From positions 32,001 to 96,000 of the IMG/VR virus record IMGVR_UViG_2799112265_000002: DNA of 64,000 bases; one strand, written 5' to 3'. The translations under genes and the position numbers were made by a program. The notes beneath the pieces were generated by a model. It searched no databases and was not told where the DNA came from. It was given only the letters and a program-made list of their open reading frames with translations. Of the stretch, positions 4,096 through 61,448 are shown in pieces (within the stretch, counting starts at the first letter, position 1; each line of letters starts with the position of its first letter). The stretch comes from a virus. Lineage: Duplodnaviria > Caudoviricetes.

Positions 4096-4707
4096 ATGTT
4101 CACCAACTACGCCGACGCAGCCGCGCTCGTCGTCGGCCTGGTGCTGCCCGCCATCGTCGCAGTGGTCACCAAGCCGTCCACCAATTCCACCGTCAAGGGT
4201 GCCGCGCACGCCGTCCTGGCCGTCGCTACCGGCACCGCGGCCGTCTACAAGGAGCACCCCTCCGGCTTCGTGTGGGCGCCCGCTGTGGTCGCCGCGTTCC
4301 TGGCCTGGCTGTCCGGTACGGCCTTCTACCACTCCCTGCTGAAGAAGTACGCGTGGTTCGGCGCGCTCCAGAACCTGTTCGTGGCCGAGGCCAAGATCGT
4401 CCTTAATACCGAGAGCCACCAGGTGGAGCAGTACTTCCAGGTGGCGCAGGTGGCCGAGCAGTCCGAGGACGAGCAGGGCATCACCAACGACTTCCCCTTG
4501 AGCACCGACGTCGTCTCCTCCGGCGTGCAGGAGGTCGTCGAGGCGGCCGAGAAGATCCCGGTCGTCGGCACGGTCGTCCAGTCCCTGGAGCCTGTCGTCG
4601 TTCCGGCCGTCGTCTCCGTTGCGCAGACCGCGGTGGACCCGGCCGGCACCAACAACATCCCCGTCGTGCAGCCGCAGACCAGCGGCCTGGGCCCGAGGGC
4701 GATCTGA
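4096..4707 (+). CDS. Holin-like membrane protein
   Basis: About three N-terminal hydrophobic segments, acidic tail, AAGGA RBS. Confidence 0.55.
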   Translation: MFTNYADAAALVVGLVLPAIVAVVTKPSTNSTVKGAAHAVLAVATGTAAVYKEHPSGFVWAPAVVAAFLAWLSGTAFYHSLLKKYAWFGALQNLFVAEAKIVLNTESHQVEQYFQVAQVAEQSEDEQGITNDFPLSTDVVSSGVQEVVEAAEKIPVVGTVVQSLEPVVVPAVVSVAQTAVDPAGTNNIPVVQPQTSGLGPRAI

Positions 4708-4709
4708 TC

Positions 4710-4997
4710 ATGGACTGGTTCCGGCTGCTGCTGATCGCGCTCGCCACCTTCACCGCGTGGGAGTGGCTGCGCGAGCTGCTGCCCTTCGCGATCCCGGCCG
4801 CCCTCCAGCCGCTCGTCGTGGTCGGCCTGGCCTACGAGGCCCAGCGGGTGCCCGGCCCATGGCTGGCGGCCACAGCAGCGGCCGGAGTGGTCGCGCTGCT
4901 GCACGTCCAGGTCCGCGGGGGAGGGGTGGATACGACCCCGATCCGCTTCCCTCGCCGGCACCCCTCTACCGGCCGCAGGGTCCCTGACCTGCCCTAA
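4710..4997 (+). CDS. Small membrane protein
   Basis: Hydrophobic helices; follows the holin-like gene. Confidence 0.65.
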   Translation: MDWFRLLLIALATFTAWEWLRELLPFAIPAALQPLVVVGLAYEAQRVPGPWLAATAAAGVVALLHVQVRGGGVDTTPIRFPRRHPSTGRRVPDLP

Positions 4998-5012
4998 CGT
5001 GTAAACCACTTT

Positions 5013-5041
5013 GAAGACCCCGCTTTACAAGCGGGGTTTTC
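5013..5041 (+). terminator. Intrinsic terminator
   Basis: AAGACCCCGC-tttacaa-GCGGGGTTTT hairpin after the structural block. Confidence 0.75.
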
Positions 5042-5070
5042 TTGCATTTAGAAGACGTAACCGCTAACGT
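5042..5070 (+). promoter_or_regulatory. Sigma70/HrdB-type promoter
   Basis: TTGCAT-17nt-TAACGT upstream of 5122. Confidence 0.55.
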
Positions 5071-5121
5071 CTTCTTCGTCGCCGATCACGGCGGCCACCA
5101 CACCAACACCGGGAGCAGAAC

Positions 5122-6333
5122 TTGAGTAAGCAGCCCATCACCCTGGCCTTCGCTGGCGCCGCTGACGTCGACCCCGAGAACATCAAGGACCTGCTCAACG
5201 ACTGGCTCGGCTTCGGCGACGAGGACGAGGCAGGCTTCTTCAAGCCCAGCGACCGCGAGATCCACCTCATCTTCCCGATCACCCGGGACCACCTGTCGGA
5301 CGGCCTGGAGACGGTCCTCGCCTGGACCGAGAAGGCCGACCTGCCCTACATCGCCGTCGCTGACAACAAGCGCAGTCGCGCCACCGAGTCCTTCCTGACG
5401 GACGCCGAGGAGGTCGTCCACCACTCCAACGTCACCGCTGGAGTCGTCGACCTGCTGAAGGAGGCCGACAGTGCGGGCGACGAGGTGCACCTGATCCTGC
5501 TGTGGGGTGACGAGGGCAGCGTCGAGGCCGAACTCCTCCTGGACGCGGCCGAGCAGGCGGGCATCAAGGCCAAGGACCTGACCGCCGGCCTCGACGACAT
5601 CTCCTTCGGTGAGCAGCCGCAGGCCGAGCCGGAGCCCGAGCCGGAGCCCGAGCCGGAGCAGCCCAAGCGTGGCCGGCGCCGCGGCCGTCGCTCCGAGCCC
5701 GAGGAGGTCCAGCCGGAGGAGGAGCCGCTGACGGAGGACGAGCCGGCGGAGCCCGAGGAGGAGCCCAAGCCGCGCCGTCGCGGTCGCAAGGCCGACCCGG
5801 AGCCGGAGCCCGAGGTGAACCCGGTCGAGGAGGACATCCAGGAGCAGCAGGAGACCCTGGAGCAGCAGGTCAACCAGGCTGCCCAGAAGGTCCAGCGCGA
5901 GGCGCAGCCGGTCGCCGACAAGGACCTCGACCTCCTGCTGATCGGCGCCGCTTTGGAGGGTGCCTACAACGCCTTCCGGCTGGAGGACGAGCGCAACGCA
6001 GTCATCAACCAGGCCGCGGTCCGCTACCGGCCGCTGACGGAACTGCTCCAGAAGGCGCTTAATACCGTGGCCGACGCGGCCCACAACCAGGAGGCCGCCA
6101 AGCAGGAGCGTGCGGCCGTCCAGGAGGACAAGCAGGAGGACGAGGAGTCGGAGCAGCCGGCGCGTCGGCGCCGTGGCCGTCCGCGCGACGAGTCCAAGAC
6201 CTTCGCCTTCCTGGTCGACGAGGACGGCAACTACACCCGACGCGGTCGCGGTCGCATACCGGCCGGACAGAAGGTCGTCCACCTGACCCGGGCAGAGATC
6301 GAGGAGAAGGGCCTCGAACTCGACGGGGAGTAA
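5122..6333 (+). CDS. Acidic low-complexity protein with AT-hook-like RGR(P) motifs
   Basis: Strong GC3 codon bias; EP repeats; RRRGRR, RRRGRK, RRRGRPR and RRGRGRIP motifs. Confidence 0.75.
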   Translation: MSKQPITLAFAGAADVDPENIKDLLNDWLGFGDEDEAGFFKPSDREIHLIFPITRDHLSDGLETVLAWTEKADLPYIAVADNKRSRATESFLTDAEEVVHHSNVTAGVVDLLKEADSAGDEVHLILLWGDEGSVEAELLLDAAEQAGIKAKDLTAGLDDISFGEQPQAEPEPEPEPEPEQPKRGRRRGRRSEPEEVQPEEEPLTEDEPAEPEEEPKPRRRGRKADPEPEPEVNPVEEDIQEQQETLEQQVNQAAQKVQREAQPVADKDLDLLLIGAALEGAYNAFRLEDERNAVINQAAVRYRPLTELLQKALNTVADAAHNQEAAKQERAAVQEDKQEDEESEQPARRRRGRPRDESKTFAFLVDEDGNYTRRGRGRIPAGQKVVHLTRAEIEEKGLELDGE

Positions 6334-6342
6334 GTGAGCAAC

Positions 6343-6401: not shown

Positions 6402-6495
6402 CCACCACACCCCGAGGCCCACCACAAACCCCGAGATGGGAAGAACCTAACATGCCCAGCCGACTTAATATCAACGGCGGATTCGGAGCCGCCGA

Positions 6496-7633: not shown

Positions 7634-8290
7634 TTGGCGACAGACCCCCGGGTCCACGCCCTGCGGATGTCCGAGTACGGGATCCCGAAGCGGCTCCGCG
7701 GCCTGCGGCTTAATACCAGCGACGCACCCTGGAAGAGCGAGTGCCAGGAGTGGGTCGACAACCTGCGCGATCATTACGTCACCGACAAGCGGCCCCTGGA
7801 CCAGTACCCCGAGGACTGGAGCCAGATCGGCAAGGGCCTGCTGTTCCTGGGCCCTCCCGGCACCGGCAAGACCTCCCTGGCCACCGCCACGCTCCTGGAG
7901 TGCTACTTCGAGCAGCGCGTCCCGGTGTACTTCCTGGCCTACGCCGACTACGTCTCCATGTCGATCGAGCAGATGAGCCTGTCCGACCGCAAGGAGCCCG
8001 AGGCCATCGCCCGGTGGTGGCAGATCGAGGACGCCCTGAACTCCGCCCGCACGGCGCCCGTGCTGCTGCTCGACGACGTCGGCAAGGAGCACCGCACCAA
8101 GTCCGGCTACGCAGAGAACGAGCTGGACGTGCTGCTGCGCCTGCGGCACCGCGAGGGGCGCCCCACGCTCATCACCTCCAACGTCCCGCCGAAGGACTGG
8201 GGCGTGATCTACCACGAGTCCATGGGCTCCTTCATCCAGGAGTCCTTCCACATGATCAAGATGGTTGGGAGCGACCGCCGTGCAGCGTGA
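7634..8290 (+). CDS. dnaC: DnaC/IstB-like helicase loader AAA+ ATPase
   Basis: Walker A GPPGTGKT, Walker B LLLDDVG, PTLITSN; AAGGAGG RBS before TTG at 7634. Confidence 0.85.
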   Translation: MATDPRVHALRMSEYGIPKRLRGLRLNTSDAPWKSECQEWVDNLRDHYVTDKRPLDQYPEDWSQIGKGLLFLGPPGTGKTSLATATLLECYFEQRVPVYFLAYADYVSMSIEQMSLSDRKEPEAIARWWQIEDALNSARTAPVLLLDDVGKEHRTKSGYAENELDVLLRLRHREGRPTLITSNVPPKDWGVIYHESMGSFIQESFHMIKMVGSDRRAA

Positions 8291-8347
8291 ACTGTTGACT
8301 TCCCACAACGGGCTTAATACCCGGCTCCGCGAGGCGGAGCGCACCTG

Positions 8348-11250: not shown

Positions 11251-11297
11251 GAGCACACCGTGACGCTTAATACCTGCCCCCGCGAGGGGGACCCCCG

Positions 11298-14487: not shown

Positions 14488-14958
14488 ATGAGCACCATCG
14501 CCAACAGCATCGACCAGGCCTTCGCCGAGATCGGCGAGCAGTTCTACCCCGGCTCGACGCGCCCCTTGGTACGTCACCGGAACCGGCTTAATACCGAGGC
14601 CGCCCCGTCGGCGGCCGACCCCAGTGCCTGGGACGCCAAGCCGCGCAAGTACGTGGTCGGTGGCGTGGAGACCGAGTTCTTCACCGTCGGCCAGTTGGCC
14701 CAGGCCCTCGGCCGGCAGCCGGTCACGATCCGGAAGTGGGAGCGCGAGGGAGTCATCCCGAAGAGCACCTTCCAGTCCCCGGGCCGTGACGGAGACGTCC
14801 GCGGCCGGCGCCGCCTCTACACCCGCGCGCAGGTTGAGGGCATCGTCCGCATCGCGCACGAGGAGGGCGTCCTGGTCTCCCACCAGAAGCCCATCAAGGA
14901 CACCCAGTTCACCCCCCGGGTGATCGCCCTGTTCGAGCGTCTGGCGGCCGAGCAGTGA
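14488..14958 (+). CDS. MerR-like HTH DNA-binding protein
   Basis: FTVGQLAQALGRQPVTIRKWEREGVIP...RRLYT. Confidence 0.8.
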   Translation: MSTIANSIDQAFAEIGEQFYPGSTRPLVRHRNRLNTEAAPSAADPSAWDAKPRKYVVGGVETEFFTVGQLAQALGRQPVTIRKWEREGVIPKSTFQSPGRDGDVRGRRRLYTRAQVEGIVRIAHEEGVLVSHQKPIKDTQFTPRVIALFERLAAEQ

Positions 14959-15666: not shown

Positions 15667-16479
15667 ATGCCCCGCACTCTGACCCGCCGCCGTACCGCCC
15701 GCGACACCGAGGCCTACTCGCCGGCCGACGAGCCGGAGGAGGAGCACGGCTACGCCGACGAGGAGGATGAGGCCCCCACCCGCGGCTCCCGTCGCGGCGC
15801 CCGCCAGTCGCTTAATACCGAGGAGGCCGGCACCTCCTCCCGCCGTTCGCGGCGTCCCTCCCGCGACGAGGACGACGAGGACGACGAGCCCGCGCCGAAG
15901 GTCGGCGGAAAGGGCTGGGGCTCCTACGAGAAGACCAAGCAGGCCTCCTCCGGCTTCCCCGACAACTTCAAGGCGACCGGCGAGTCCGTCATCGTCCACT
16001 TCCTGGACGACGAACCGTTCCTGGTCTTCCTCCAGCACTGGATCGAGCGCAAGGGCAAGAAGTCCTTCACGTGCCTCGAAAGCAAGTGCCCGCTGTGCGA
16101 CGACGCCGGGGACAAGCCGTCCCAGCAGGTGTGCTTCAACGTCGTCGACTTCACCGACCCCGAGGACCCGCAGATCAAGGTCTGGCAGGTCGGCCCGATG
16201 GTCGCCGACATCCTGAAGAACTACGCCAAGGACAAGAAGACGTCGCCGATCAACCGCGACGACCTGTACTTCTCGGTCCGCAAGGAGACCAAGAACAACA
16301 AGACCACCTACTACATCACGCCCGTCAAGGAGCGTGACCTCCTCGACGACTGGGACATCGAGCCCCTGGAGGACGAGGACCTGGAGGAATTCGACTCCAA
16401 GGCCTACGACGAGGGCATCCTCCAGGTCACCCGGCGCAGCGAACTCAAGGACATCGTCCGGGAAATCCTGAACGACTAG
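15667..16479 (+). CDS. Single-stranded DNA-binding protein (T4 gp32-like)
   Basis: QHW...TCLESKCPLC zinc motif; acidic termini; next to the polymerase. Confidence 0.7.
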   Translation: MPRTLTRRRTARDTEAYSPADEPEEEHGYADEEDEAPTRGSRRGARQSLNTEEAGTSSRRSRRPSRDEDDEDDEPAPKVGGKGWGSYEKTKQASSGFPDNFKATGESVIVHFLDDEPFLVFLQHWIERKGKKSFTCLESKCPLCDDAGDKPSQQVCFNVVDFTDPEDPQIKVWQVGPMVADILKNYAKDKKTSPINRDDLYFSVRKETKNNKTTYYITPVKERDLLDDWDIEPLEDEDLEEFDSKAYDEGILQVTRRSELKDIVREILND

Positions 16480-16559: not shown

Positions 16560-18536
16560 GTGCAGATCCGCAACTCCGTCATCCTCACCCCCGACCGACT
16601 TAATACCTTGGTCGAGCGCTTCATGGAGCGCCCGGCCTTCGCATTCGACATCGAGACGTTCGGCGCCAACCGAAACGTTCCGACGCAGAACGTCGCCAAC
16701 TGGATAAGCCTGGCCACCGACGGCGAGGCCTACGCCATCCCGTTCGGCCACCCCAACGGCGACGTCCTGATCAGCAAGGCCACGCGCAAGAAGAACCGGC
16801 TTACCGGCAAGTTCGACGCCATCCCGGCCGTCTACGACGCCCCACCGGAGCAGATGCTGCCCTCCGAGGTGTTCAGCATCCTCAAGCCCCTGTTCTTCGC
16901 CGAGGACAAGATCAAGATCGCGCACAACGCGACCTTCGACCTGATCTCCACGGCCAAGTACTGGGGTGAGATCTGCCCGCCGGAGTACAGCGACACCATC
17001 GTGCTCCAGTGGCTCCTCGACGAAAACATGAAGCAGAAGAGCCTCGACGCCCTGGTCAAGCGCTACTACAAGGTCGACTACAAGGACAACGTCGGTAAGT
17101 GCGTCGAGGCCCACCCCTTCTCCAAGGTCGCGCACTACGCGTACATGGACGCGAAGTACACGTGGCTGCTCTGGAAGCGATTCCAGAAGCAGATCCGGGA
17201 GCAGAACCTGACCCACGTGCGGCGCCTGGAGGAGGACGTCCTGGGTGTCCTGCTGGACATGGGCATCACCGGGGCGCCGGTCGACGAGGCAGCGATGCGC
17301 GAGCTGGTCCAGGACATGCAGGCCCGGCTCGTCGAGATCGAGGGCAGCATCTACCGGGCCGCGGGCAAGCAGTTCAACTTGAACGCCCCGGCGCAGAAGG
17401 CCGAGGTGCTGTACGCCCCGAAGAAGGACGGCGGCCAGGGCCTCAAGCCCCTGAAGCCGACCGACGGCGGGAAGAAGAAGCGGGACGCCGGCCAGGAGCT
17501 GGAGTGGAAGGACTTCAGCACCGACTCCGACTCCCTGGAGAAGCACCCGAACAACCCCGTCGTCAAGGCGATGCTGGAGTACGCGGAAGTCAGCAAGCTG
17601 CTGTCGTACCCGGTGGCCTACCTCGGAGACCCCGAGGACAAGGACAAGCCCTGCCGGATCTTCGACGGCCGGATCCATGCCGACTTCGTCCAGTACGGGA
17701 CGGTGACTGGACGATTCTCCTGCCGGGAACCCAACCTCCAGAACATCCCCCGGCCGGACACGGAACTGGGTAAGAAGATCCGCGGTCTGTTCATCGCGCC
17801 GCCCGGCTACAAGCTGGTCGTCGCGGACTACGGCCAGATCGAACTCGTCGTCCTCGCGCACTTCATCGGCCGCGGTGACCTCTACAAGGGGTTCCACCAG
17901 GGAGTCGACCCGCACTCGGCGACGGCCGCCGCGCTGATGGGTGTGGACCCGCAGGAGTTCATGCGGCGGGTCAAGGAGGGCGACCGAACCTGCATCGACT
18001 TCCGCCAGGTGGCCAAGGGCATCAACTTCGCCGTCGTGTACGGCGCGGGCCCGGACAAGGTGGCCTCGATGGCTGGCATCTCCGTCAAGGACGCGAAGAA
18101 GTTCATGGAGATGCACCAGAAGATGTTCCCGGAGATCTACCGCTTCAAGGAAGAGGTCATACGCGTCTGCCGGTCGCGCCGTCCTCCGCACATCCGGACG
18201 CTGCTGGGCCGCAAGCGGCGCCTGCCGCTCATCCTCAGCCAGAACAACGGCCTGCGGATGGGCGCCGAGCGTCAGGCAGTGAACAGCCTCATCCAGGGCA
18301 GCGCGGCCGACCTGATCAAACTCGCGATGATCCGGCTGAACAACTCCCTGCCGGACGACATGCGCCTGATCCTCTCCGTGCACGACGAACTCGTGACACT
18401 CGCGCCGGAGGACAAGGCCGAGGAATGCGCTGCGCTGGTCCGGGAGGCCATGCTCGGCGAAGGAATCCAGAAACTGCTCAAGGTACCGCTCTCGTCGGAC
18501 GTGAAAATCGTGGACCGCTGGTCGGAGGCAAAGTAA
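16560..18536 (+). CDS. polA: Family A DNA polymerase (3'-5' exonuclease + polymerase)
   Basis: FDIET, AHNATFD, TGRFSCREPNLQNIP, ADYGQIE, AKGINFAVVYG, VHDEL. Confidence 0.95.
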   Translation: MQIRNSVILTPDRLNTLVERFMERPAFAFDIETFGANRNVPTQNVANWISLATDGEAYAIPFGHPNGDVLISKATRKKNRLTGKFDAIPAVYDAPPEQMLPSEVFSILKPLFFAEDKIKIAHNATFDLISTAKYWGEICPPEYSDTIVLQWLLDENMKQKSLDALVKRYYKVDYKDNVGKCVEAHPFSKVAHYAYMDAKYTWLLWKRFQKQIREQNLTHVRRLEEDVLGVLLDMGITGAPVDEAAMRELVQDMQARLVEIEGSIYRAAGKQFNLNAPAQKAEVLYAPKKDGGQGLKPLKPTDGGKKKRDAGQELEWKDFSTDSDSLEKHPNNPVVKAMLEYAEVSKLLSYPVAYLGDPEDKDKPCRIFDGRIHADFVQYGTVTGRFSCREPNLQNIPRPDTELGKKIRGLFIAPPGYKLVVADYGQIELVVLAHFIGRGDLYKGFHQGVDPHSATAAALMGVDPQEFMRRVKEGDRTCIDFRQVAKGINFAVVYGAGPDKVASMAGISVKDAKKFMEMHQKMFPEIYRFKEEVIRVCRSRRPPHIRTLLGRKRRLPLILSQNNGLRMGAERQAVNSLIQGSAADLIKLAMIRLNNSLPDDMRLILSVHDELVTLAPEDKAEECAALVREAMLGEGIQKLLKVPLSSDVKIVDRWSEAK

Positions 18537-19006
18537 TGGGACTGTTCAGCAGGAAGAACAAGGACGAAGACAACCCGCTCGACGCGCTTAATACCGACGA
18601 CGACCTCCAGGTCGACATCTACACCCCGCAGATGCTGACCAAGCGCCTGGCCTGGGACATCGTCCCGTGCAGCGAGGTCGAGCGGCTGATCCCCCTCATG
18701 GGGCTCACCCCTGACAGCCCCGACGTCTCCGACATGGAGCACAAGGCCAGCCACGACAGGATCGACGCGCTCGCACCCCTGAAGGAAATGCTAGCGCTGT
18801 TCATCCCGATAGTTTCTGGCATTACCGCCTCGGCTATGCTGGTTAACTCCGGAAATTCCGTGGACGAGGAAACCGCAGCAGTTCTTCAGCGGCATCATTC
18901 CGTAGTCGTCCGCGCCGGAATTGTGGCGATCCTCGCCAATCTCCTCGACATGGGAATCATCAGTTACGCGGATGGAGTGCAGTTCGGTGACGAACTTCTG
19001 GGCTAA
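18536..19006 (+). CDS. Hypothetical protein
   Basis: TAATG coupling to polA. Confidence 0.7.
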   Translation: MGLFSRKNKDEDNPLDALNTDDDLQVDIYTPQMLTKRLAWDIVPCSEVERLIPLMGLTPDSPDVSDMEHKASHDRIDALAPLKEMLALFIPIVSGITASAMLVNSGNSVDEETAAVLQRHHSVVVRAGIVAILANLLDMGIISYADGVQFGDELLG

Positions 19007-19445
19007 CAAACTGGGGGCGGCCACTCGACCGGCCGCCCCGGCCCCGGCCCCTGCGCCGGTACAGCAGCAGCCGCAGGGCGGAGCCTGGTGGAAGCCGCAG
19101 CCGACAGCGGCCTACCCCACCCCGCCCCAGCCCCAGCCCCAGCAGACAGTGCCACTTAATACCGAGGGCCAGGCACCGGCCCGCGCAATGGTGGCCAAGC
19201 AGGACACTCACTGCCCTGACTGCGGAGGCTCGAACTACTTCAAGCCGGTGGGCATGCACAACGCCATGTCGCAGTGCTACGAGTGCGGCTACAACCCGCG
19301 CTTCCAGCAGTCGACCGCCGGCCTGCCGTCTGGCAGCGGAGGAGACGGACCCGCCACGCCCGCCAAGCAGGTCGCCTCGGGCGGTCTGGGCGGCCGGAGC
19401 AACTACAACCCCGGCGCCATCATCCGGCCCGACGGCTCGGTCTAA
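18987..19445 (+). CDS. Zinc-ribbon protein with Pro/Gln-rich N-terminus
   Basis: CPDCG...CYECGY; GGAG RBS before GTG. Confidence 0.7.
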   Translation: MTNFWANKLGAATRPAAPAPAPAPVQQQPQGGAWWKPQPTAAYPTPPQPQPQQTVPLNTEGQAPARAMVAKQDTHCPDCGGSNYFKPVGMHNAMSQCYECGYNPRFQQSTAGLPSGSGGDGPATPAKQVASGGLGGRSNYNPGAIIRPDGSV

Positions 19446-19488: not shown

Positions 19489-21438
19489 GTGACCACCCTG
19501 CTCACTACTGCCGGTGACCTTGCAGACCCTTACCGTAGTTTCATCGCCAAATCGCGCTACTCCAGGTGGCTCGACGACGAGAACCGGCGCGAGACCTGGA
19601 CCGAGACCGTCGCGCGCTACGTGACATTCATGCTGGCCCAGTTGAAGGACAAGCACGACTACACCCCCGACCCCCAGGTGGTCGACGAGATCCACGCGGC
19701 CATCCTCAACCACGAGGTCATGCCGTCCATGCGCGCCGTCATGACGGCCGGCCCCGCCCTGGACCGCTCGAACATCGCCGGGTTCAACTGCTCGTACCTG
19801 CCGCTGAAGGACGCCCGCGCTCTCGACGAGTTGCTGTACATCCTCATGAACGGCACGGGCGTGGGCTACAGCGTCGAGCGCAAGTACACCGACCAGTTGC
19901 CCCCGGTGCCGGACGCCCTGCGCCAGACCAAGGACAAAATCGTGGTGCACGACAGCAAGGAGGGGTGGGGAATCGGCTTCCGGCTGCTGCTAGAGGATCT
20001 GTGGCAGGGCAAGGTGCCGACGTGGGACCTGTCCAAGGTGCGTCCGGCCGGGGCCCGGCTTAATACCTTCGGAGGTCGAGCCTCCGGTCCTGAGCCGCTG
20101 AACGAACTGTTCGAGTTCGTGGTGCAGAAGTTCCACCAGGCCGCCGGTCGTAAGTTCAGGCCGATCGAGGTCCACGACATCGCCTGCAAGATCGCATCCG
20201 TGGTGGTCGTGGGTGGCGTGCGCCGGTCCGCGATGATCAGCCTGAGCGACCTGGACGACAAGGAGATGGCCGAGGCCAAGTCGGGGGAATGGTGGGTCGA
20301 GCACCCCTACCGCGCCCTCGCCAACAACAGCGCGGTCTACACCGACGGCATGCGGCACGAGGACTTCCGCACCGAGTGGGACTCCCTCGTTGCCTCCGGC
20401 AGCGGTGAGCGCGGCATCTTCCACCGCGGGGCGGCGCAGAGGCAGGCCGCACGGTTCGGCAAGCGGGAGTCCGACACCGACTACGGGACCAACCCGTGCT
20501 CGGAGATCATCCTCCGGCCGTTCTCTTTCTGTAACTTGTCCGAGGTCGTCGTCCGGGCCGAGGACACCCCCGAGACCCTGACCCGGAAGGTGCGTCTGGC
20601 GGCTGTCCTCGGCACGTGGCAGTCGACCCTGACCGACTACCCGTACCTGCGCGACGAGTGGCGCAAGAACGCGGAGGAGGAGCGCCTGCTGGGCGTCTCC
20701 CTCACCGGGGTCTACGGCAACCCCTACACCAACGGAAGCAAGGGTATGGGGCTGACGTCGCTCGCCCTGACCGTCCTGCGCTCGGAGGTCGTCGAGGCCA
20801 ACGCTGCCGAGGCCCGGCGCATCGGTATCGCGGCCTCGGTAGCGACCACCTGCGTCAAGCCGTCCGGCACGGTATCCCAGTTGGTGGACTGCGAGTCCGG
20901 CCTGCACCAGAAGCACGCGAAGTTCTACTTCCGGCGGGTGCGGGTGGACAAGAAGGACCCGATCGCGTTCGTACTCATCGACGCCGGCCTGCCGTACGAG
21001 GAGGACGCCTACAACAGCGCCGCGTGGGTGTTCACCTTCGCTCAGCGGGCTGCCGAGGGGGCCCTCGTCCGTGAGGACGTGTCGGCCATCGAGCACCTGG
21101 AACTGTGGTTGGCCTATCAGCGCGCGTGGTGCGAGCACAAACCGTCGGTGACCATCTCCGTGCGCGAGCACGAGTGGGAGCAGGTCGGCGAGTGGGTGTG
21201 GGAGCACCTGGACGAGATCTCCGGCGTCTCCTTCCTGCCGTACTCGGATCACACGTATGTGCAGGCGCCGTACGAGGAGTGCACCGAGGCCGAGTACGAG
21301 GCGCTGGCCGCGAAGAACCACCGCGTGGAGTGGTCGGACCTGGCGTTCTACGAGACGTTCGACCAGACGAAGGGCTCCCAGGAACTGGCCTGCTCCGCGG
21401 CCGGCGGCTGTGAGGTCGTCGACCTCGTGACCACCTGA
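19489..21438 (+). CDS. nrdJ: Class II (B12-dependent) ribonucleotide reductase
   Basis: FNCSY, VVGGVRRSA, TNPCSEI, CVKPSGT and a C-terminal CSAAGGC cysteine pair. Confidence 0.93.
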   Translation: MTTLLTTAGDLADPYRSFIAKSRYSRWLDDENRRETWTETVARYVTFMLAQLKDKHDYTPDPQVVDEIHAAILNHEVMPSMRAVMTAGPALDRSNIAGFNCSYLPLKDARALDELLYILMNGTGVGYSVERKYTDQLPPVPDALRQTKDKIVVHDSKEGWGIGFRLLLEDLWQGKVPTWDLSKVRPAGARLNTFGGRASGPEPLNELFEFVVQKFHQAAGRKFRPIEVHDIACKIASVVVVGGVRRSAMISLSDLDDKEMAEAKSGEWWVEHPYRALANNSAVYTDGMRHEDFRTEWDSLVASGSGERGIFHRGAAQRQAARFGKRESDTDYGTNPCSEIILRPFSFCNLSEVVVRAEDTPETLTRKVRLAAVLGTWQSTLTDYPYLRDEWRKNAEEERLLGVSLTGVYGNPYTNGSKGMGLTSLALTVLRSEVVEANAAEARRIGIAASVATTCVKPSGTVSQLVDCESGLHQKHAKFYFRRVRVDKKDPIAFVLIDAGLPYEEDAYNSAAWVFTFAQRAAEGALVREDVSAIEHLELWLAYQRAWCEHKPSVTISVREHEWEQVGEWVWEHLDEISGVSFLPYSDHTYVQAPYEECTEAEYEALAAKNHRVEWSDLAFYETFDQTKGSQELACSAAGGCEVVDLVTT

Positions 21439-22850: not shown

Positions 22851-22982
22851 TGGTGGCCGTGCTCTCCCTCCTCCTGGCTTTCGCGGCCGTCTACATCGTG
22901 GTCCTCGGCGTCCGCTACTCCCGGCGCCAGGGCCGCGCCCACCTCAAGTTCCTCATCCTCGCCAACCTCCTGGAGAAGACCT

Positions 22983-23327
22983 ATGGCGGACATGCTGAAG
23001 AAGTCCCAGAAGCAGGAGCGGCGAGGAGCGGAACTGCTGGGCGGGACGGTGAACGCCGGGAGCGGAAACGGCTGGGTCAGAAAGAACGACGTACGCACCC
23101 CTGAGTACAGCGTCGAGTACAAGGTCACCGGCAAGAAGCAGTACTCCCTGAAGGACGCAGAACTTCAGACCGCGGAGAAACAGGCCCTCCTCGACGGCAG
23201 GGAAATGCTCTTCGGGATCCAGATGGAAAGCGGAAGGAACTGGATCGTGATGAGCGAGGAAACATTCCTCACGCTTAATACCCAGGCGTTCCCGGACGCC
23301 GACCCCGACGAGGTGCTGTCGTGGTAA
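22983..23327 (+). CDS. PD-(D/E)XK nuclease / resolvase-like protein
   Basis: QERR..., GSGNG..KNDV, VEYK. Confidence 0.7.
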   Translation: MADMLKKSQKQERRGAELLGGTVNAGSGNGWVRKNDVRTPEYSVEYKVTGKKQYSLKDAELQTAEKQALLDGREMLFGIQMESGRNWIVMSEETFLTLNTQAFPDADPDEVLSW

Positions 23328-40227: not shown

Positions 40228-40607
40228 ACAGAAACCTCAGCCTGAAGAGCGCCCTCCTCGTAATCGGAATTCTCGCCGTCCCGGTAGCAGGAATCTCCGC
40301 AATCCCGAATCAGACTTCTCCCCGACTTAATACCGGAATTTCCCAGGAGGATTCTTCCAAGACCGAAGGGGATTCGAATCCGCAACCGGTCGCCACGGTA
40401 ACCCGATACGCGGAGGTGCCGGCGCATCCGAATTCGGGCACGTGCAAGGTGTCGCTCGTAATCGGCCCGTCGCCCGCGGTGCCGGCGCCCACGTCCTCGG
40501 CCACGCCATACGCACCTGTGGCAGGGCTGGCGCATACGCATTCTGTGCAGGTCAAGATTCCGTGCCCCGTGAAGACAGAGACGGAAACACCAACGTCTAC
40601 CAAGTAA
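40224..40607 (+). CDS. Secreted/membrane hypothetical protein
   Basis: Signal-peptide-like N-terminus; ATGA overlap. Confidence 0.55.
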   Translation: MNRNLSLKSALLVIGILAVPVAGISAIPNQTSPRLNTGISQEDSSKTEGDSNPQPVATVTRYAEVPAHPNSGTCKVSLVIGPSPAVPAPTSSATPYAPVAGLAHTHSVQVKIPCPVKTETETPTSTK

Positions 40608-55395: not shown

Positions 55396-55719
55396 TGCAC
55401 GAGAACCCCACGGATGCCTGGGCGCACCAGGAAGGCCCGCTCGAACTGGGTGAGCTGGGTGCCGGCATCGGTATCGACCCGAGCCTGTGCGGAGACGGCT
55501 TCCCCCGCGAGGAGTGCCCCAACGGCGCCAAGTGCGCCGACAAGGGCTAGCTCAGTCTCCGGTCCGGTCCGTCGACAGCGAAGGAGTCGGCGGGCCGGGC
55601 CGGTCCTACCACCTGGAGATTGGCGTGAGACGCCTTAATACCTAGTCCGGGTATTCGGGTGCCCGGCGGGCGGCGTCCCACCGGGCACCTGTCCCACCAC
55701 CGAGAGGTGCAACTCTCCG

Positions 55720-56427
55720 ATGGGACTCCTCAACCCTATCCAGAGCTGGCGCGCAAGACGCGCGAGCAAGCCTGAGACAGAGCCTGTCTCACCCCCTTCT
55801 CGCCCGCTGGGCGGCCTGCACGCGACCGGTCTGGTCATCGGGTTCTCCACGATCCTGGTGGCGCTGGCGTTCGTGGCGCTGGTCGGTATGCGGGTGAGCT
55901 GGGTGCCCCTCCGAGACACCGCGGACGGCATCGGCCTGCACGAGGTCAGGGAGTTCTACCCCCTGGTCATCGACGGGCTGGACGGTCTGGCGGTGGTGGC
56001 CTCCCTCGCGCTGGTCGGCTCCCCGGGATACCGGTGGGCGATCGGCACGGTGGTCGGGCTCACCGCTATCTCACTCGTGCTCAACGTTGCTCACGGCTCC
56101 GCGTACGCGGGTGTGACCGGGCAGTCGGACGCCACGACGTGGGGACACGTGATCCTCGCGTCGGCCGCGCCGACCGTCTGTATCGCCCTCGGCACGCACC
56201 TGGCCGCACTCACCTTCCACCGGCTGGCGGGAGTGCTGGGACAGCGACGAGACAGCGTTGAGACACGGGAGCCGGAGGAGCCGAGGAAGCTGCTCACCAC
56301 GGCGGAGGTGGCGGACCGGCTGGGCATCAGCCGGAGCACGGTCGGCACCCGCGTCGACCGTGGGCAGCTCACGCCGGTCGTGAAGGATCCCAAGCTGGGC
56401 AACCTCTTCGACCCGGCGTCTCTGTGA
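55720..56427 (+). CDS. DUF2637 membrane protein with C-terminal HTH
   Basis: YPLVIDG, SLVLNVAH, four TM segments; LTTAEVADRLGISRSTV HTH. Confidence 0.8.
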   Translation: MGLLNPIQSWRARRASKPETEPVSPPSRPLGGLHATGLVIGFSTILVALAFVALVGMRVSWVPLRDTADGIGLHEVREFYPLVIDGLDGLAVVASLALVGSPGYRWAIGTVVGLTAISLVLNVAHGSAYAGVTGQSDATTWGHVILASAAPTVCIALGTHLAALTFHRLAGVLGQRRDSVETREPEEPRKLLTTAEVADRLGISRSTVGTRVDRGQLTPVVKDPKLGNLFDPASL

Positions 56428-56480
56428 CATCCCGACGGGGCTCGGCATGAGTCGGGCCCCGTCTCAACCCTGGAGGAACT

Positions 56481-57034: not shown

Positions 57035-57487
57035 ATGTCGCTTAATACCGTGACGGCCCCGGCGGCCGTCGAGATCACCCTGGACGAGGCGAAGTCCCTC
57101 CTGGCCCGTGCGGTCGAGGAGCGTGGCGCCGGCTACACGTACCAGATGCTCACGATCGACGAGCAGTCCCTGTGTGCGTACTTCGACCCGAAGACGAAGG
57201 CGCCGTCCTGCATCGTCGGCCAGGTGCTGGCCTACAAGGGCGTCACCTACGACGACCTGGCGGGCCAGGAGGTCAACACCTACGCCAACATCGAGGCCCT
57301 GAACGACCAGGGCGTGGTGAAGGTCGACAACGACACCCAGGCGCTGCTGGAGATCGCGCAGTCCGAGCAGGACGCCGGCATGCCGTGGGGGCGGGCCGTC
57401 GAGGAGGCGCTGGCGACGTACGAGGGGCGTGCGCAGGCCTACGAGGAAGACGGCTACGACGACCCGTCGCTGGCCTACTGGTTCTGA
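57035..57487 (+). CDS. Hypothetical protein
   Basis: GAGGAG RBS; CAY..PSCIVG..Q..QD.G.PWG actinophage-type motif. Confidence 0.75.
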   Translation: MSLNTVTAPAAVEITLDEAKSLLARAVEERGAGYTYQMLTIDEQSLCAYFDPKTKAPSCIVGQVLAYKGVTYDDLAGQEVNTYANIEALNDQGVVKVDNDTQALLEIAQSEQDAGMPWGRAVEEALATYEGRAQAYEEDGYDDPSLAYWF

Positions 57488-58293: not shown

Positions 58294-58450
58294 ATGCCCG
58301 CACAACCCCACGAGAGTGTGACGCAGGCCATACAGGTTCCGTTGAACGCGTTTCTGATTACGCCTTTCCATTACGCGTTTCTCGTTATAGGTTTCTCTGT
58401 GTCGGGGCCACTCCAGGACCACCGAGAACCGCAGCAACGAGGAGCACCGA

Positions 58451-58861: not shown

Positions 58862-58863
58862 AC

Positions 58864-59091
58864 ATGACCGCGAAGCAGGACGACCGCCCCACCATGAACC
58901 TCGGCCACCTGGCCATCCCCCACGAGAGTGCGAGCCAGGACTGGCTCCGGCGCCAGGGAGAGAAGCGCCGCGCGGCCGTAGAGATCGTCGCCGCGGAGTC
59001 CAAGAAGTGGTGGGCCGTGCACGCCCTCCCGGACTCCTTCTACGAGCAGTTCGCCGAGCGCATCGTCACGGCCCTCGACCAGCGTCTCTGA
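58864..59091 (+). CDS. Hypothetical protein
   Basis: Tight packing. Confidence 0.6.
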   Translation: MTAKQDDRPTMNLGHLAIPHESASQDWLRRQGEKRRAAVEIVAAESKKWWAVHALPDSFYEQFAERIVTALDQRL

Positions 59092-59125
59092 CACACCCCA
59101 CAACCACACACCGAGGAGAGCGCAC

Positions 59126-60235
59126 ATGGCGCACCTGTACGACCTGTTCAAGCCCAAGGACCTGCTCGACAACCTCGGTAAGGGGTACGTCCGGACGCAG
59201 ACCAGCCCGGACGGCAGCCGCGTCATCTTCAACTACACGAACCAGACCCAGTACGAGGGCGCCTGGAACGAGGTCACCAAGCAGACCCGCGGACTGATCA
59301 TCGACTCCAAGACGGAGAAGATCGTCTCCCGGCCGTTCCAGAAGTTCTTCAACTACGAGCAGTTGAACCACGCCGACCAGGCCGACCTGATGCACCACGA
59401 GGTGGAGACCTTCAAGAAGTGGGACGGCTCGCTGGGAGTCGGCTACACGCTTAATACCGGGGAGTTCCGCATCGCGACGCGGGGCTCCTTCACCTCCCCG
59501 CAGGCCGAGCACGCCAACCGGATCCTCACCGAGCGGTACCCGACCTTCGAGCCGATCCTGGGCCTGACGTACCTCTTCGAGATCGTCTACCCGGCCAACC
59601 GCGTCGTCGTCGACTACAAGGACCTGGACGACCTGGTCCTGCTCGCGGTGATCAACACCGCGACCGGCCTCACGCTGGCCCACGGCGACTACGACTGGCC
59701 CGGCCCGGTCAACCAGCCGGTGCACTACAAGTCGCTGGGAGAGGTCCTGGCGAAGGTAGAGAACTGGCCGGATAAGAACGCCGAAGGCTTCGTCGTGCGC
59801 TTCCCGCACAACGACCTGCGGGTGAAGTTCAAGTACGACGAGTACAAGCGCCTGCACCGGATCCTGACGAACGTCTCCACGCTGTCGGTGTGGGAAGCGC
59901 TGGCCGCGGGCCAGGGCATCGGGGAGTTCATCGACCACGTGCCGGACGAGTTCTACTCCTGGGTCCACCAGCAGGTGCACCGGCTGGAGGCCGACTTCGA
60001 CCGCGAGCATGCGGCCGTCCTCGACGACTACGAGTACATCGTCAGGCGCCTGCGCCGGCCGGAGACGGACGGCAAGAAGCGGCGCAAGGAGTTCGCGCTC
60101 CAGGCCCAGACGACGCCGTACCCGGGCCTGCTGTTCCGTCTCTACGACGGCCACGACATCACCGCGGACGTCTGGAAGCGGGTGCGCCCGGAGTTCGAGA
60201 AGCCGTTCTGGACGCCGTCGGAGGACGCCGCCTGA
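59126..60235 (+). CDS. RNA ligase (T4 Rnl1-like)
   Basis: RGLI, RPFQKFFN, KWDGSL, TRGSF, FEIV, EGFVV, RVKFK. Confidence 0.93.
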   Translation: MAHLYDLFKPKDLLDNLGKGYVRTQTSPDGSRVIFNYTNQTQYEGAWNEVTKQTRGLIIDSKTEKIVSRPFQKFFNYEQLNHADQADLMHHEVETFKKWDGSLGVGYTLNTGEFRIATRGSFTSPQAEHANRILTERYPTFEPILGLTYLFEIVYPANRVVVDYKDLDDLVLLAVINTATGLTLAHGDYDWPGPVNQPVHYKSLGEVLAKVENWPDKNAEGFVVRFPHNDLRVKFKYDEYKRLHRILTNVSTLSVWEALAAGQGIGEFIDHVPDEFYSWVHQQVHRLEADFDREHAAVLDDYEYIVRRLRRPETDGKKRRKEFALQAQTTPYPGLLFRLYDGHDITADVWKRVRPEFEKPFWTPSEDAA

Positions 60236-60534
60236 TGGAGCCCGACGACTTCGGCGGGTGGTTCGAGGAAGCGGAGCTGGTGGGCGGGCAGAAGCTGCTC
60301 GCCCACCCCCGTAAGGACTGCCTGGGCCGGCACTGCTGCATCCACAACCCCTCCGAGCACCACATGCGCGAGTGGCCGCAGAACTTCCGGCCGGACAAGA
60401 CGCTCACCGAGCGGATCTGTCCCCACGGGTTCGGTCACCCCGACCCAGACGACCTCGAATACAAGCGGATCTACGTCGGCAGGTGGGAGTACCTGGTCGC
60501 CGAGGTCCACGGCTGCGACGGGTGCTGCCAGTGA
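60235..60534 (+). CDS. Cys/His-rich hypothetical protein
   Basis: CCIHNPSEHHM, ERICPHGFGHPDPD, HGCDGCC. Confidence 0.75.
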   Translation: MEPDDFGGWFEEAELVGGQKLLAHPRKDCLGRHCCIHNPSEHHMREWPQNFRPDKTLTERICPHGFGHPDPDDLEYKRIYVGRWEYLVAEVHGCDGCCQ

Positions 60535-60578
60535 CCGTGAAGTGCCTGTGCTGCCGTCCCACCACGAAGGAGAAGCCT

Positions 60579-61448
60579 GTGACCACCCTGACCATGACCA
60601 AGGGCCTGCCGGGCTCGGGGAAGACCACCTGGGCCCGGGAGCAGGTGCTCAAGGCCATCCCGGGCTCGGTCGTCATCGTCTGCAAGGACGACCTGCGGGC
60701 GATGCTGCACGCCGACCGCTTCCACGGCAAGCACGAGCGGCAGATCGTCAAGGCCCGCGACACGATGGTGGAGATGTTCCTGCTCCAGGGGGTCTCCGTG
60801 ATCGTCGCGGACACCAACCTCAACCCGGCCCACGAGGAGCGGCTGGCCCGCATCGCGGAGGGCAAGGGGGCGCGGTTCTTCGTCAAGGACTTCACCGACG
60901 TCTCGCTTAATACCTGCGTCCGCCGCGACCTGAAGCGGGAGAAGAGCGTCGGCGAGAAGGTCATCAGGGACATGTACGAGAAGTACCTGGCCCCCAAGCC
61001 TGCCGACCCTCCGGAGTACCTCCACGGCCGGCCGCACGCCGTCCTGGTGGACCTCGACGGCACGCTGGCCAAGATGGCCGACCGCAGCCCCTTCGACTGG
61101 GACCGCGTGGACGAGGACGACGCGCACCAGGACGTCGTCGACCTGGTGAACACCCTGCGGGACGCGGGCGCCGAGATCGTCTTCGTCTCCGGCCGTGACG
61201 CTCGGGCCTACAAGCGGACCCGGTCCTGGCTGACGCAGCACGTGGGTGACTGGACGAGCCTGTCCCCGCTGCTGATGCGCTCCGAGTACGACATGCGCAA
61301 GGACTCGATCGTGAAGGAGGAGATCTACCGACAGGAGATCCTGGGACGCTACAACGTGTGGCTGGTCCTGGACGACCGCGACCAGGTCGTCGACATGTGG
61401 CGCAATCTCGGCTTGCGTGTCCTCCAGGTGGCGCCCGGAAACTTCTGA
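60579..61448 (+). CDS. pnk: Polynucleotide kinase / 3'-phosphatase (PseT-like)
   Basis: GLPGSGKTT kinase; DLDGTLA, SGR, LDDR HAD phosphatase. Confidence 0.93.
   Translation: MTTLTMTKGLPGSGKTTWAREQVLKAIPGSVVIVCKDDLRAMLHADRFHGKHERQIVKARDTMVEMFLLQGVSVIVADTNLNPAHEERLARIAEGKGARFFVKDFTDVSLNTCVRRDLKREKSVGEKVIRDMYEKYLAPKPADPPEYLHGRPHAVLVDLDGTLAKMADRSPFDWDRVDEDDAHQDVVDLVNTLRDAGAEIVFVSGRDARAYKRTRSWLTQHVGDWTSLSPLLMRSEYDMRKDSIVKEEIYRQEILGRYNVWLVLDDRDQVVDMWRNLGLRVLQVAPGNF

Follow-up and report, generated by a model that had tools for sequence, protein, structure and literature searches.

We analysed a 64,000-nucleotide (nt) stretch of phage DNA, hereafter the window, which corresponds to bases 32001-96000 of a 105,651-bp IMG/VR record (IMGVR_UViG_2799112265_000002; genome G000) classed as a provirus, and we focused on the 9-bp word CTTAATACC that recurs in its genes. 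A gene call based on GC content at third codon positions (GC3) placed nearly all genes of the record on the plus strand. Matches to Pfam and PHROGs outlined a virion module of the contractile-tail type (terminase, portal, capsid, sheath, tube and baseplate) and a module for replication and nucleotide metabolism, comprising an initiator, a DnaC-like loader, DnaB, primase, SNF2 helicase and PolA, followed by class II ribonucleotide reductase (RNR), RecA, resolvases, ThyX and a deoxynucleoside monophosphate (dNMP) kinase. The same searches found WhiB, SpoVS, Lsr2, a GH25 lysin, an RNA-repair set and a queuine tRNA-ribosyltransferase homologue. A serine integrase and a tyrosine recombinase lie at the left end of the record, and in a public data set of 8 Mb the stretch has the read depth of the other contigs, as expected of a resident prophage. 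Given these recombinases and the host-like depth, we conclude that the phage is temperate; it is large, and its host is a high-GC actinobacterium. GC content of the window was 64-69%, and not 68% throughout as a preliminary description of this DNA had implied.

The closest cultured relatives by PolA (~52% identity) are the Streptomyces phages BRock, Alone3, LuckySocke, GiJojo and pSt2308, and a scan of genome contigs gave one match only, a distant Nonomuraea prophage. We compared 51 IMG/VR loci around PolA, 794,051 nt in total. Relatives at 85-93% PolA identity split into two sets, an A-type carrying CTTAATACC and a C-type carrying CTTCATAC. Complete C-type genomes are G001-G004, and the A-type includes G000, G008, G009, G010 and G020. 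Two motif-free genomes, G005 (PolA 48%) and BRock, were also used for comparison.

The occurrence of the word is non-random. In the window, CTTAATACC is present 26 times on the plus strand and GGTATTAAG not at all, and both CTTAATA and TTAATA are found at 29/0 (plus/minus), so that the 26 exact and three variant copies, all on one strand, reported in the preliminary description were recounted without change. Its claim that the word should be rare by chance also stood, with a mean of 0.03 copies and a maximum of 1 in 100 dinucleotide shuffles of the window. The three CTTAATAT copies (starts 6464, 35119 and 38806) all lie in frame, reading Leu-Asn-Ile or Leu-Asn-Met, and are followed by hairpins from 2 nt downstream (-11.7 kcal/mol at 6464; for the others see Table 1), which makes the heptamer CTTAATA the invariant core. 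The whole record has 37 forward copies of CTTAATACC and one reverse copy, and a reversed-pattern control gave 0/0. Since the lone reverse copy sits, in frame and with its own hairpin, in a minus-strand leader open reading frame (ORF) before the serine integrase, 38/38 copies are co-oriented with genes, as a phage-wide and strictly oriented signal would have it.

Synonymous-codon shuffling (200 shuffles within 115 plus-strand genes) left a mean of 5.5 copies on the plus strand (maximum 8) and 1.0 on the minus strand, against the observed 37 and 1, and the survivors were mostly copies outside the shuffled genes. The base preceding the word is G in 26/37 and C in 7/37 copies. Sites are spaced ~2.8 kb apart on average, with site-free gaps of 10.7 and 15.3 kb. 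The region at 40.3-55.6 kb of the window is a variable, word-free accessory region, most genes of which have no homologue in G001 or G004, and it lacks the word because it was recently acquired. Three other words are also strand-biased in G000, namely ACCTACTAC (7/0), ACTACTAC (9/0) and CTACTACGGC (6/0); their bias may reflect repeated peptide or codon-pair usage.

Most genes of the phage carry the word once, and it is also locked to one reading frame. All 38 exact copies in G000 read CTT-AAT-ACC in an ORF, which extends the earlier observation on copies within genes. The 32 copies in called genes of at least 80 aa are identical with all 32 Leu-Asn-Thr (LNT) tripeptides of those genes, where ~5 are expected from amino-acid frequencies; the remaining six lie in a large baseplate ORF, in ORF 40224-40607, in the minus-strand leader ORF and in three mini-ORFs. 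Counted by location, 33/38 copies are inside genes and the other five in ORFs or leader mini-ORFs. The ordinary CTG AAC ACC pointed out earlier at 15138 is present. Within called ORFs, phase 0 was found for 26/26 copies in G000, 33/37 in G001 and 27/32 in G004, and all nine off-phase copies belong to leader mini-ORFs, situated where the frame of the following gene extends upstream without being translated. In the A form, such a lock could arise from constraint alone, because the other frames hold TAA or TTA-ATA. In the C form CTTCATACC, however, the alternative frames are open (xxC TTC ATA CCx and xCT TCA TAC Cxx), ATA, TCA and CAT are used with similar frequency (42, 46 and 38 times among 29,242 codons of G000), and the sites gained in both lineages (described below) are all in frame 0. 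This indicates that the lock is more than stop avoidance.

Half of the copies (19/38) lie at most 21 codons from a start, at most 17 codons from a stop, or in a leader ORF, with ten at codons 3-21; 17/38 are mid-gene. The early and late positions named in the preliminary description were all recovered: codon 3 of recA, thyX and ORF 57035, codon 14 of polA and ORF 33480, codon 18 of ORF 18536, and codons 34-35 of the MerR gene, dnaC and ORF 40224, as well as the positions near stops (6 codons ahead in recA, 12 in the dNMP kinase gene and 17 in ORF 22983). The word never lies upstream of its own ORF's start, and its earliest position, codon 3, would place the hairpin described below at about +18, just outside the initiating ribosome. 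A promoter class without a -35 box had been suggested earlier; as an element for a phage sigma factor or RNA polymerase, it would be comparable to a T4 late promoter. The word is indeed AT-rich and co-oriented, with eight copies 11-77 nt upstream of a start codon. However, the early-codon and mid-gene copies, several of them at codon 3, would start transcripts inside the genes they mark. In addition, early-type (replication) and late-type (tail) modules both carry the word, no RNA polymerase or sigma factor gene was found with Pfam or PHROGs, and the frame lock is left unexplained. We consider a promoter highly improbable.

Copies that appear intergenic always fall in short ORFs (6-27 codons) with their own Shine-Dalgarno (SD) sequence and start codon. 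The stop codon of such a leader ORF overlaps or nearly abuts the next start, in the forms ATGA, TGATG, TTGA and GTGA. Leader mini-ORFs of this kind hold the words at 6464, 8313, 11266 and 55634 of the window. C-type genomes have a 10-codon ORF ahead of recA (MRLHTYGGPC and stop); it occurs in four sequence variants, and its stop overlaps the TTG or GTG of recA, whereas in A-type genomes this leader unit is fused in frame, so that the word becomes codon 3 of recA. At the ends of recA, ORF 22983 and the dNMP kinase gene, the hairpin past the word contains the SD or start of the next gene. The first 13 codons of thyX (25559-25600) and of ORF 57035 (57035-57075) are almost the same (ATG TCG CTT AAT ACC ... 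CCG GCG GCC GTC). These near-identical N-termini, together with the absence of a 27-nt unit from thyX of G001, suggest that a unit of start, word and hairpin can be copied between genes. Before recA, the intergenic region at 21438-21566 is conserved and comparatively AT-rich, and its 7-8-bp stem (CCGGTAG...CTACCGG), kept in both dialects of the word, may be a promoter or a regulatory hairpin.

We then evaluated RNA folding in the 32 nt after the word against 3000 random windows, with the 32 nt before the word as a second control. The mean folding energy was -11.1 kcal/mol after the word, compared with -7.1 kcal/mol in random windows (p=5e-9) and -6.4 kcal/mol before it, and G001 and G004 showed this pattern as well. 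The first paired base lies 0-2 nt past the word (3-5 nt after AAU) in 31/38 copies. By fixed criteria, a hairpin follows 27/38 copies in G000, 28/40 in G001 and 27/36 in G004, against 1001/3000, 922/3000 and 1039/3000 control windows, an enrichment of ~2-fold; the hairpin is a strong tendency, not a universal feature. Stem sequences are unrelated between sites, and within a site the stem is kept by compensatory or G.U changes as loops drift. Measured against background, folding of the plus strand exceeded that of the complementary strand in G001 (p=0.02) and G004 (p=0.004), and this bias was not significant in G000. The preliminary description had missed this hairpin, as well as the leader ORFs and the sister dialect.

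A word beside a hairpin is found at many sites of enzymes acting on single-stranded DNA (ssDNA), and pC194-type replicons are nicked at CTTGATA, which is similar to the core CTTNATA. A site on ssDNA or nicked DNA (a T5-like nick, a primase- or ssi-type lagging-strand priming signal, or a HUH-nuclease site) would also suit the strict strand specificity and the mean spacing. Because almost every gene lies on the same strand, only the minus copy can tell the polarity of replication from that of transcription, and this single opposite-strand copy follows gene orientation in 7/7 genomes counted (G000-G004, G019 and G020). Such a site leaves the frame lock and leader ORFs unexplained and sits poorly with the two long site-free gaps. 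No HUH or Rep gene was found, and the HNH endonuclease gene at 15191-15664 of the window, probably a mobile insertion in G000, is missing at the same place in the word-bearing G001 and G004. An ssDNA site thus seems very unlikely.

The leader of gene 55720-56427 provided the clearest view of RNA structure. Here the word forms the last three codons of the leader ORF and is followed immediately by TAG or TAA. Word bases 4-9 and the T of the stop codon pair with a downstream GGGTATT, and the partner of word base 4 changes with the dialect at 17/17 loci (T with A in seven A-type loci, G with C in ten C-type loci); the loop of this hairpin 1 measures 5-8 nt across these loci. Upstream of the word, at least five different, unrelated mini-ORFs or gene ends were found, all stopping directly past the word. 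We aligned 15/17 loci and, leaving out two identical rows, scored 13 distinct rows. In these, 97.4% of cells were paired with the leader fold compared with 24-42% when partners were slid, and the dialect pair at word position 4 was CG in seven rows, AU in six and unpaired in none. The two leader helices show compensatory changes together with invariant G.U pairs, and these pairs and the variable loop argue for a plus-sense RNA fold rather than an operator. Beyond hairpin 1 come a terminator-like stem lacking a U tract and then a third hairpin over the SD of gene 55720. An alternative (antiterminator) pairing is present in G000 and L086, but not in G001 and L087. Homologues of gene 55720-56427 are present in the word-bearing clades, with partial ones in the word-free proviruses G016-G018; as these come without the word, we rejected the gene-55720 protein as its reader.

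Across the 51 loci, CTTAATACC occurs 193 times in forward and once in reverse orientation. The sister word CTTCATAC, followed by C and less often by T or G, is likewise found on the gene strand only. G001-G004 each hold 32-39 C-type copies on the gene strand and one on the other, and G000 has 37+1 A-type copies and no CTTCATA. Two strays were seen, one CTTCATAC (G020:C1:27987) beside the 29 A-type copies of G020, and a single CTTAATACC at the recA end of the C-type locus L026; both probably derive from recombination between lineages. At orthologous places, among them PolA codon 14, RNR, the MerR-type gene and both ends of recA, the dialects differ by one base, so that an Asn of one set corresponds to a His of the other. 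In word-free relatives the proteins are collinear, but the corresponding residues or codons differ; for example, the RNR site reads RLNT in the A-type, RLHT in the C-type and RLQT (CTG CAG ACG) in G005. This agrees with the proposal that it is the nucleotide sequence, and not the peptide, that is under selection.

At C-only sites, A-type phages have CTG CAC ACC, CAG CAC ACC, CTG CAC CAG or CTG CAC GGC, and at A-only sites, C-type phages have CTG AAC ACC, CTG AAC TCG and similar codons. Since the sites of one dialect sit on pre-existing tripeptides of the other, both lineages gained sites independently. The preliminary description had asked if the position of the motif moves among orthologues as its sequence is kept; places proved to be shared or independently gained, and the sequence differs by one base between lineages. 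A more distant genome, G011 (PolA 68%, 47.5 kb), has four CTTCATAC on the gene strand and none on the other, and two inspected copies have the same build. The C form is therefore probably ancestral, and the frame lock was probably not inherited from the stop-containing A form. The word is absent from G005 and from the whole BRock genome, where only tRNA T-loop k-mers were found. We rejected an origin by insertion of a mobile mini-element, as most sites are substitutions in collinear proteins and the 27-nt unit varies in presence only at thyX-type N-termini.

The dialects show a partial link to a putative phage tRNA-His gene. The tRNAs of the record are Pro(UGG), Phe(GAA), Leu(CAA) and Asn(GUU). 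G001, G002 and G003 encode an extra tRNA(GUG) of 85-86 nt (48-53 bits with the Rfam tRNA model); among the genomes covering this region, it is missing in G004 and in the A-type G000, G008, G009 and G010. Its distribution fits the middle codon of the word (CAU vs AAU), as thin and phylogenetically non-independent evidence. tRNA-Asn(GUU) is found in all genomes compared, including the C-type. The tRNA(GUG) loci (L104:1538-1623, L105:1502-1587 and L106:1502-1587) have a long class-II-like variable arm, which is odd for tRNA-His. The queuine tRNA-ribosyltransferase (TGT) homologue, a 512-aa protein encoded at 38527-40065 of the window (PHROG 887, E=1e-78), is conserved in BRock and G005. It has no match in Pfam or NCBIfam, no preQ0-synthesis genes were recognised beside it, and it could modify DNA (DpdA-like) or tRNAs with GUN anticodons.

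Lineage-specific dialects also invite comparison with double-stranded DNA (dsDNA) stoperators, at which an immunity repressor on the asymmetric 9-bp site would block elongating RNA polymerase in an orientation-dependent manner. The copies are many and all point in the direction of transcription, even in the sole word-bearing operon on the minus strand; the phage is temperate, and its variable accessory region is free of sites. Dialects likewise differ between sister lineages of Cluster A phages, and stoperator systems are known in Streptomyces phages, according to the available portions of PMC6550527 and PMC10276819, respectively. However, 33/38 copies lie inside genes, whereas the sites of phiScoe and R4 are intergenic in the portion of PMC10276819 that we consulted. 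Neither the frame lock and leader ORFs nor the fixed-distance hairpin, the G.U pairs and the variable 5-8-nt spacer of the 55720 leader would have a role in dsDNA binding, a 7-9-bp site is short for a repressor, and no repressor gene was linked to the sites. Stoperators are therefore an unlikely explanation. The nucleoid or packaging mark that had also been proposed meets the same difficulty, as it explains neither the frame lock, the translated leader ORFs and the fixed-distance hairpin nor the G.U-containing hairpin formed by the word.

It is possible, if doubtful, that the word is instead an RNA site at which a trans-acting reader specific to the lineage, be it a small RNA or a protein of the phage or host, would recognise the single-stranded word 5' of the hairpin. 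Such a reader might terminate or arrest transcription (a Nun-like 'RNA stoperator'), cleave or process polycistronic mRNA, or protect it, and the frame lock would follow incidentally from coding constraints or because ribosome traffic is required. One dialect per genome is what a base-specific reader co-evolving with its sites in an immunity-like manner predicts, and this phage is a temperate one. A plus-sense hairpin next to an unpaired word suits an RNA-binding site, and in the 55720 leader the covarying complement masks the word, resembling a decoy or autoregulatory arrangement. In contrast, a trans-acting reader predicts neither the frame lock of the independently gained C-type sites nor dedicated leader ORFs with SD and start. 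No candidate was found; known nucleic-acid-binding genes are common to word-free relatives, there was no RNase or RelE-like match, and covariation of plus-strand complements was confined to the hairpin arm within the leader itself and to the reverse of the copy in the integrase leader. After listing plus-strand GGTATT and GGTATG, we rejected a trans-acting antisense RNA, as the conserved occurrence before recA does not covary with the dialect and that at 55720 pairs in cis.

The readers named in the preliminary description fared no better. The MerR helix-turn-helix (HTH) protein, WhiB, SpoVS, Lsr2 and the protein of ORF 5122 all have homologues in the word-free G005 and/or BRock, so none of them is specific to the system, and the supposed DUF4258 protein was not recovered, as no DUF4258 or RelE-like protein was detected at E<0.05. 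NCBIfam gave nothing useful on reader candidates. ORF 29570-31159 is DUF7178-like by Atlas (0.92-0.93), which we note as a lead only.

Strand, frame, translated leaders and the fixed distance from word to hairpin are most simply explained if the word is read by the translating ribosome. We thus favour, at a probability of roughly 40%, a control signal within the mRNA that acts as a pause or as a coupling checkpoint. The signal would be a composite on the sense strand, consisting of an in-frame CUU-AAU-A (in full CUU-AAU-ACC; in the sister lineage CUU-CAU-ACC, -ACU or -ACG) and a GC-rich hairpin 0-2 nt past the ninth base. If CUU occupies the P site and AAU or CAU the A site, the hairpin would begin ~12 nt from the first P-site base, which is the mRNA entrance of the ribosome. 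At that point, the ribosome would have two successive codons ending in U to decode by G.U wobble and a helix to unwind, and the result may be a slow step or checkpoint programmed into elongation and keyed to a single tRNA (Asn here, His in the sister lineage). At junctions, the word would act from the last codons of the upstream gene or leader ORF; as the hairpin holds the SD or start of the next gene, translational coupling would be gated by ribosomes moving through the word. For the 55720 leader, this passage may drive an attenuator-like fold. The pause could serve to gate lytic genes, to couple cistrons or to protect mRNA.

Several observations weigh against reading by the ribosome. A single dialect per genome is not explained by the ribosome alone and calls for a base-specific reader, which could be the tRNA in the A site or else a distinct protein or RNA. 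The link to tRNA-His is weak: the gene is present in 3/4 C-type and 0/4 A-type genomes that are not independent, G004 is without it, and C-type phages keep tRNA-Asn. AAU and CAU are read by host tRNAs anyway, and the benefit to the phage is conjectural. About 30% of copies have no clear hairpin, and ~33% of random GC-rich windows fold too. Two RNA and two DNA sequencing runs, available as contigs, yielded pieces of related genomes but no usable ends, and the small shares matched are uninformative on habitat. Coupling is irrelevant for the 17/38 mid-gene copies. The heptamer is not a known slippery sequence, and no second ORF was found in the +1 frame (median 46 codons to the first +1 stop at sites vs 32 in controls, p=0.056). 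In the -1 frame, G CUU AAU becomes GCU UAA without re-pairing of the tRNAs, and a +1 slip from CUU to UUC or UUA would be the only conceivable shift. As there is no pattern of +1 ORFs or stops and no coding gap, and as orthologues are collinear in frame 0, we rejected productive frameshifting and bypassing.

A more ambitious form of the ribosome reading is a genome-wide translational regulon, in which most cistrons would be tagged, read by the ribosome and keyed to one wobble-decoded tRNA, re-keyed from His to Asn by lineage. We regard this as rather unlikely. The phage would supply or modify tRNA-Asn or tRNA-His, both of which would be substrates of its TGT-like enzyme, and one tRNA state might lock or release the whole lytic programme; such a regulon would be the translational counterpart of immunity by repressor and stoperators. 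If frame-locked reading is correct, this would be the first virus that marks most of its genes with one codon-level word read by the translation machinery. It would add a layer of global gene control, possibly for immunity or host sensing, beside promoters, repressors and stoperators, and would bear on the purpose of phage tRNA genes and phage TGT-like enzymes. Even if an RNA- or DNA-binding protein proves to be the reader, the change of ~35 sites in concert, which exchanged Asn for His in dozens of proteins, is a clear case of a nucleic-acid signal overriding protein sequence.

Table 1. Copies of the word and associated features in the window. Hairpin offsets (+n) are in nt past the word.
Feature	Position	Strand	Context
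CTTAATACC	4402..4410	+	Codon 103/203 of ORF 4096-4707; hairpin weak
CTTAATACC	6058..6066	+	Codon 313/403 of ORF 5122-6333; hairpin from +0, -12.9 kcal/mol
CTTAATATC variant	6464..6472	+	Leader mini-ORF MPSRLNINGGFGAAE (then stop) before replication-initiator gene 6496-7500; hairpin +2 (6475-6494)
CTTAATACC	7709..7717	+	Codon 35/227 of DnaC/IstB-like loader gene; hairpin only at +10
CTTAATACC	8313..8321	+	Leader mini-ORF of ~22 codons with SD and GTG; TGA overlaps ATG of gene 8348-8803 (TGATG)
Hairpin after 8313 word	8324..8340	+	Contains GGAG of gene 8348-8803
CTTAATACC	11266..11274	+	Codon 3 of 13-codon leader ORF MTLNTCPREGDPR (then stop) with AGGAG and GTG; stop overlaps ATG of 11298-11594 (ATGA)
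Hairpin after 11266 word	11277..11290	+	
CTTAATACC	14587..14595	+	Codon 34/156 of MerR-type gene; 7-bp hairpin +2 with compensatory changes among relatives
CTTAATACC	15811..15819	+	Codon 49/270 of ORF 15667-16479; hairpin from +0
CTTAATACC	16599..16607	+	Codon 14/658 of DNA polymerase I gene; CTTCATACC at orthologous site in sister clade
CTTAATACC	18587..18595	+	Codon 18/156 of ORF 18536-19006; site specific to A-type lineage
CTTAATACC	19155..19163	+	Codon 57/152 of ORF 18987-19445; hairpin +2
CTTAATACC	20059..20067	+	Codon 191/649 of RNR gene (RLNTFGGRASG); 6-bp hairpin
CTTAATACC	21573..21581	+	Codon 3 of recA; in sister clade, separate 10-codon leader ORF overlapping recA start
CTTAATACC	22830..22838	+	6 codons before recA stop
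Hairpin after 22830 word	22841..22858	+	Loop holds TGATG, the stop/start overlap with next ORF
CTTAATACC	23274..23282	+	Resolvase-like gene 22983-23327, 17 codons before stop; hairpin +2, maintained with other sequences in relatives
CTTAATACC	25565..25573	+	Codon 3 of thyX; 27-nt unit (word and hairpin, LNTSVAPAA) missing from G001 thyX
CTTAATACC	27395..27403	+	dNMP kinase gene, 12 codons before stop; hairpin ends at ATGA overlap with next gene
CTTAATACC	31013..31021	+	Codon 482/529 of ORF 29570-31159; CTG AAC ACC in sister clade (same LNT in common codons)
CTTAATACC	31037..31045	+	Codon 490/529 of ORF 29570-31159; hairpin +2; orthologous to CTTCATACC
CTTAATACC	32456..32464	+	Codon 191/327 of GH25 lysin gene
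CTTAATACC	33519..33527	+	Codon 14/126 of ORF 33480-33860; 9-bp hairpin +3, -18.6 kcal/mol
CTTAATACC	34319..34327	+	Codon 124/330 of ORF 33950-34942; no clear hairpin; CTG AAC TCG or CTC AAC TCC in relatives
CTTAATATC variant	35119..35127	+	Codon 69/292 of ORF 34915-35793; hairpin +2, -21.4 kcal/mol
CTTAATATG variant	38806..38814	+	Codon 94/512 of queuine-tRNA-ribosyltransferase-like gene; hairpin +2, -18.4 kcal/mol
CTTAATACC	40326..40334	+	Codon 35 of ORF 40224-40607 (weak coding signal); last copy before word-free region 40.3-55.6 kb
CTTAATACC	55634..55642	+	Last three codons of leader ORF GTG-AGA-CGC-CTT-AAT-ACC-TAG (M-R-R-L-N-T-stop) upstream of gene 55720-56427
Leader hairpin 1	55637..55655	+	AATACCT pairs with GGGTATT
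Leader hairpin 2	55656..55691	+	11-bp GC-rich terminator-like stem, no U tract; compensatory changes at 3 pairs, one invariant G.U
Gene behind 55634 leader	55720..56427	+	C-terminal excisionase/MerR-like HTH_17 and DUF2637; SD in third conserved hairpin
CTTAATACC	57041..57049	+	Codon 3 of ORF 57035-57487; 7-bp hairpin
CTTAATACC	59450..59458	+	Codon 109/369 of Rnl1-type RNA ligase gene; hairpin +1, -19.7 kcal/mol
CTTAATACC	60906..60914	+	Codon 129/308 of polynucleotide kinase-phosphatase gene

Some further features of the record were noted. The RNA-repair set at 57385-61448 of the window encodes an RlaP-type nucleotidyltransferase, an Rnl1-type RNA ligase and a polynucleotide kinase-phosphatase, two of the three carrying the word, and resembles T4's answer to anticodon nucleases. 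Outside the window, the serine integrase gene (bases 1-2055 of G000, minus strand) has a C-terminal DUF4096 segment (IS4/5 transposase-like), and its ORF is open to the record's edge. An aptamer of the c-di-AMP (ydaO-type) riboswitch class (RF00379) covers 63912-64000 of the window and continues beyond it (G000 95912-96051; L110:313-452). It lies in the phage tRNA cluster, between tRNA-Phe and tRNA-Leu, and scored 59.6 bits in G000 and 68-72 bits in three C-type relatives; a c-di-AMP riboswitch borne by a phage is unusual.

Literature searches with the motif strings returned only unrelated papers (supplementary files not covered), and searches on rare codons, stem-loops and ribosome pausing in actinobacteriophages returned one related paper (PMC10732093) and no description of the system (supplementary files again not covered). 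We found no published description of a word-plus-hairpin system of this kind; the nearest ideas are stoperators and rare-codon UUA signals. Stoperators measure 12-13 bp, those of L5 are intergenic, and a stoperator site also acts as the operator of the early lytic promoter. Stoperators with lineage variants are described for Cluster A mycobacteriophages in the consulted parts of PMC9283540 and PMC6550527, and intergenic ones for the Streptomyces phages R4 and phiScoe in that of PMC10276819. As far as these parts describe them, stoperators (L5, Bxb1, R4/phiScoe) share with the present word dozens of copies of one short asymmetric sequence in a temperate genome, oriented with transcription and varying by lineage. 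They differ as repressor-bound, intergenic dsDNA sites, whereas the present word lies in one frame of ORFs, with an RNA-type hairpin and translated leaders.

The UUA signal, a rare-codon signal of Streptomyces, concerns the terminase gene of the Streptomyces phage phiHau3, a candidate for UUA-mediated translational bypassing in the consulted part of PMC10732093. According to that part, it also combines a very rare codon with local RNA structure and short upstream ORFs near the main start, and was proposed as a translational sensor. It involves one gene, a non-coding gap and the bldA tRNA (PMC10732093, same part), whereas the present system uses other codons, has no gap and is genome-wide. Polar DNA words such as Chi and KOPS are oriented, over-represented oligomers that ignore the reading frame and also occur in the host chromosome; the present word shows the orientation and excess but is tied to one frame.

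Recoding cassettes consist of a heptamer, a 5-9-nt spacer and a structure, and known +1 sites include CUU-UGA-C of prfB and CUU-AGG-C of Ty1. The present element likewise has an in-frame CUU-initial heptamer, a poorly decoded second codon, a fixed spacer and a stem-loop at the position of the mRNA entrance, with structure downstream of the A-site codon in 31/38 copies. It differs in having no second frame, ~38 copies per genome instead of one or two, no -1 re-pairing, and positions at codons 3-14 of single-domain essential enzymes. Leader-peptide attenuators of the trp/his type can be compared with the 55720 leader only, in which an ORF of 6-8 codons also ends in regulatory codons that form a hairpin arm, followed by a terminator-like stem; here, however, the stem has no U tract, no conserved antiterminator was found, and the codons are not repeats for a single amino acid. 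Unlike phage-specific promoters of the T7 or T4-late type, the present word is not upstream of the genes served, ten copies being at codons 3-21 and 17 mid-gene. Start-associated sequences (SAS) precede start codons and take in the ribosome-binding site. Those of Cluster K mycobacteriophages, as presented in the consulted part of PMC3203893, are also short, conserved, oriented words tied to gene starts, and about half of the present copies are near a start or a stop/start junction. The present word, in contrast, lies downstream of the start codon and within the translated frame.

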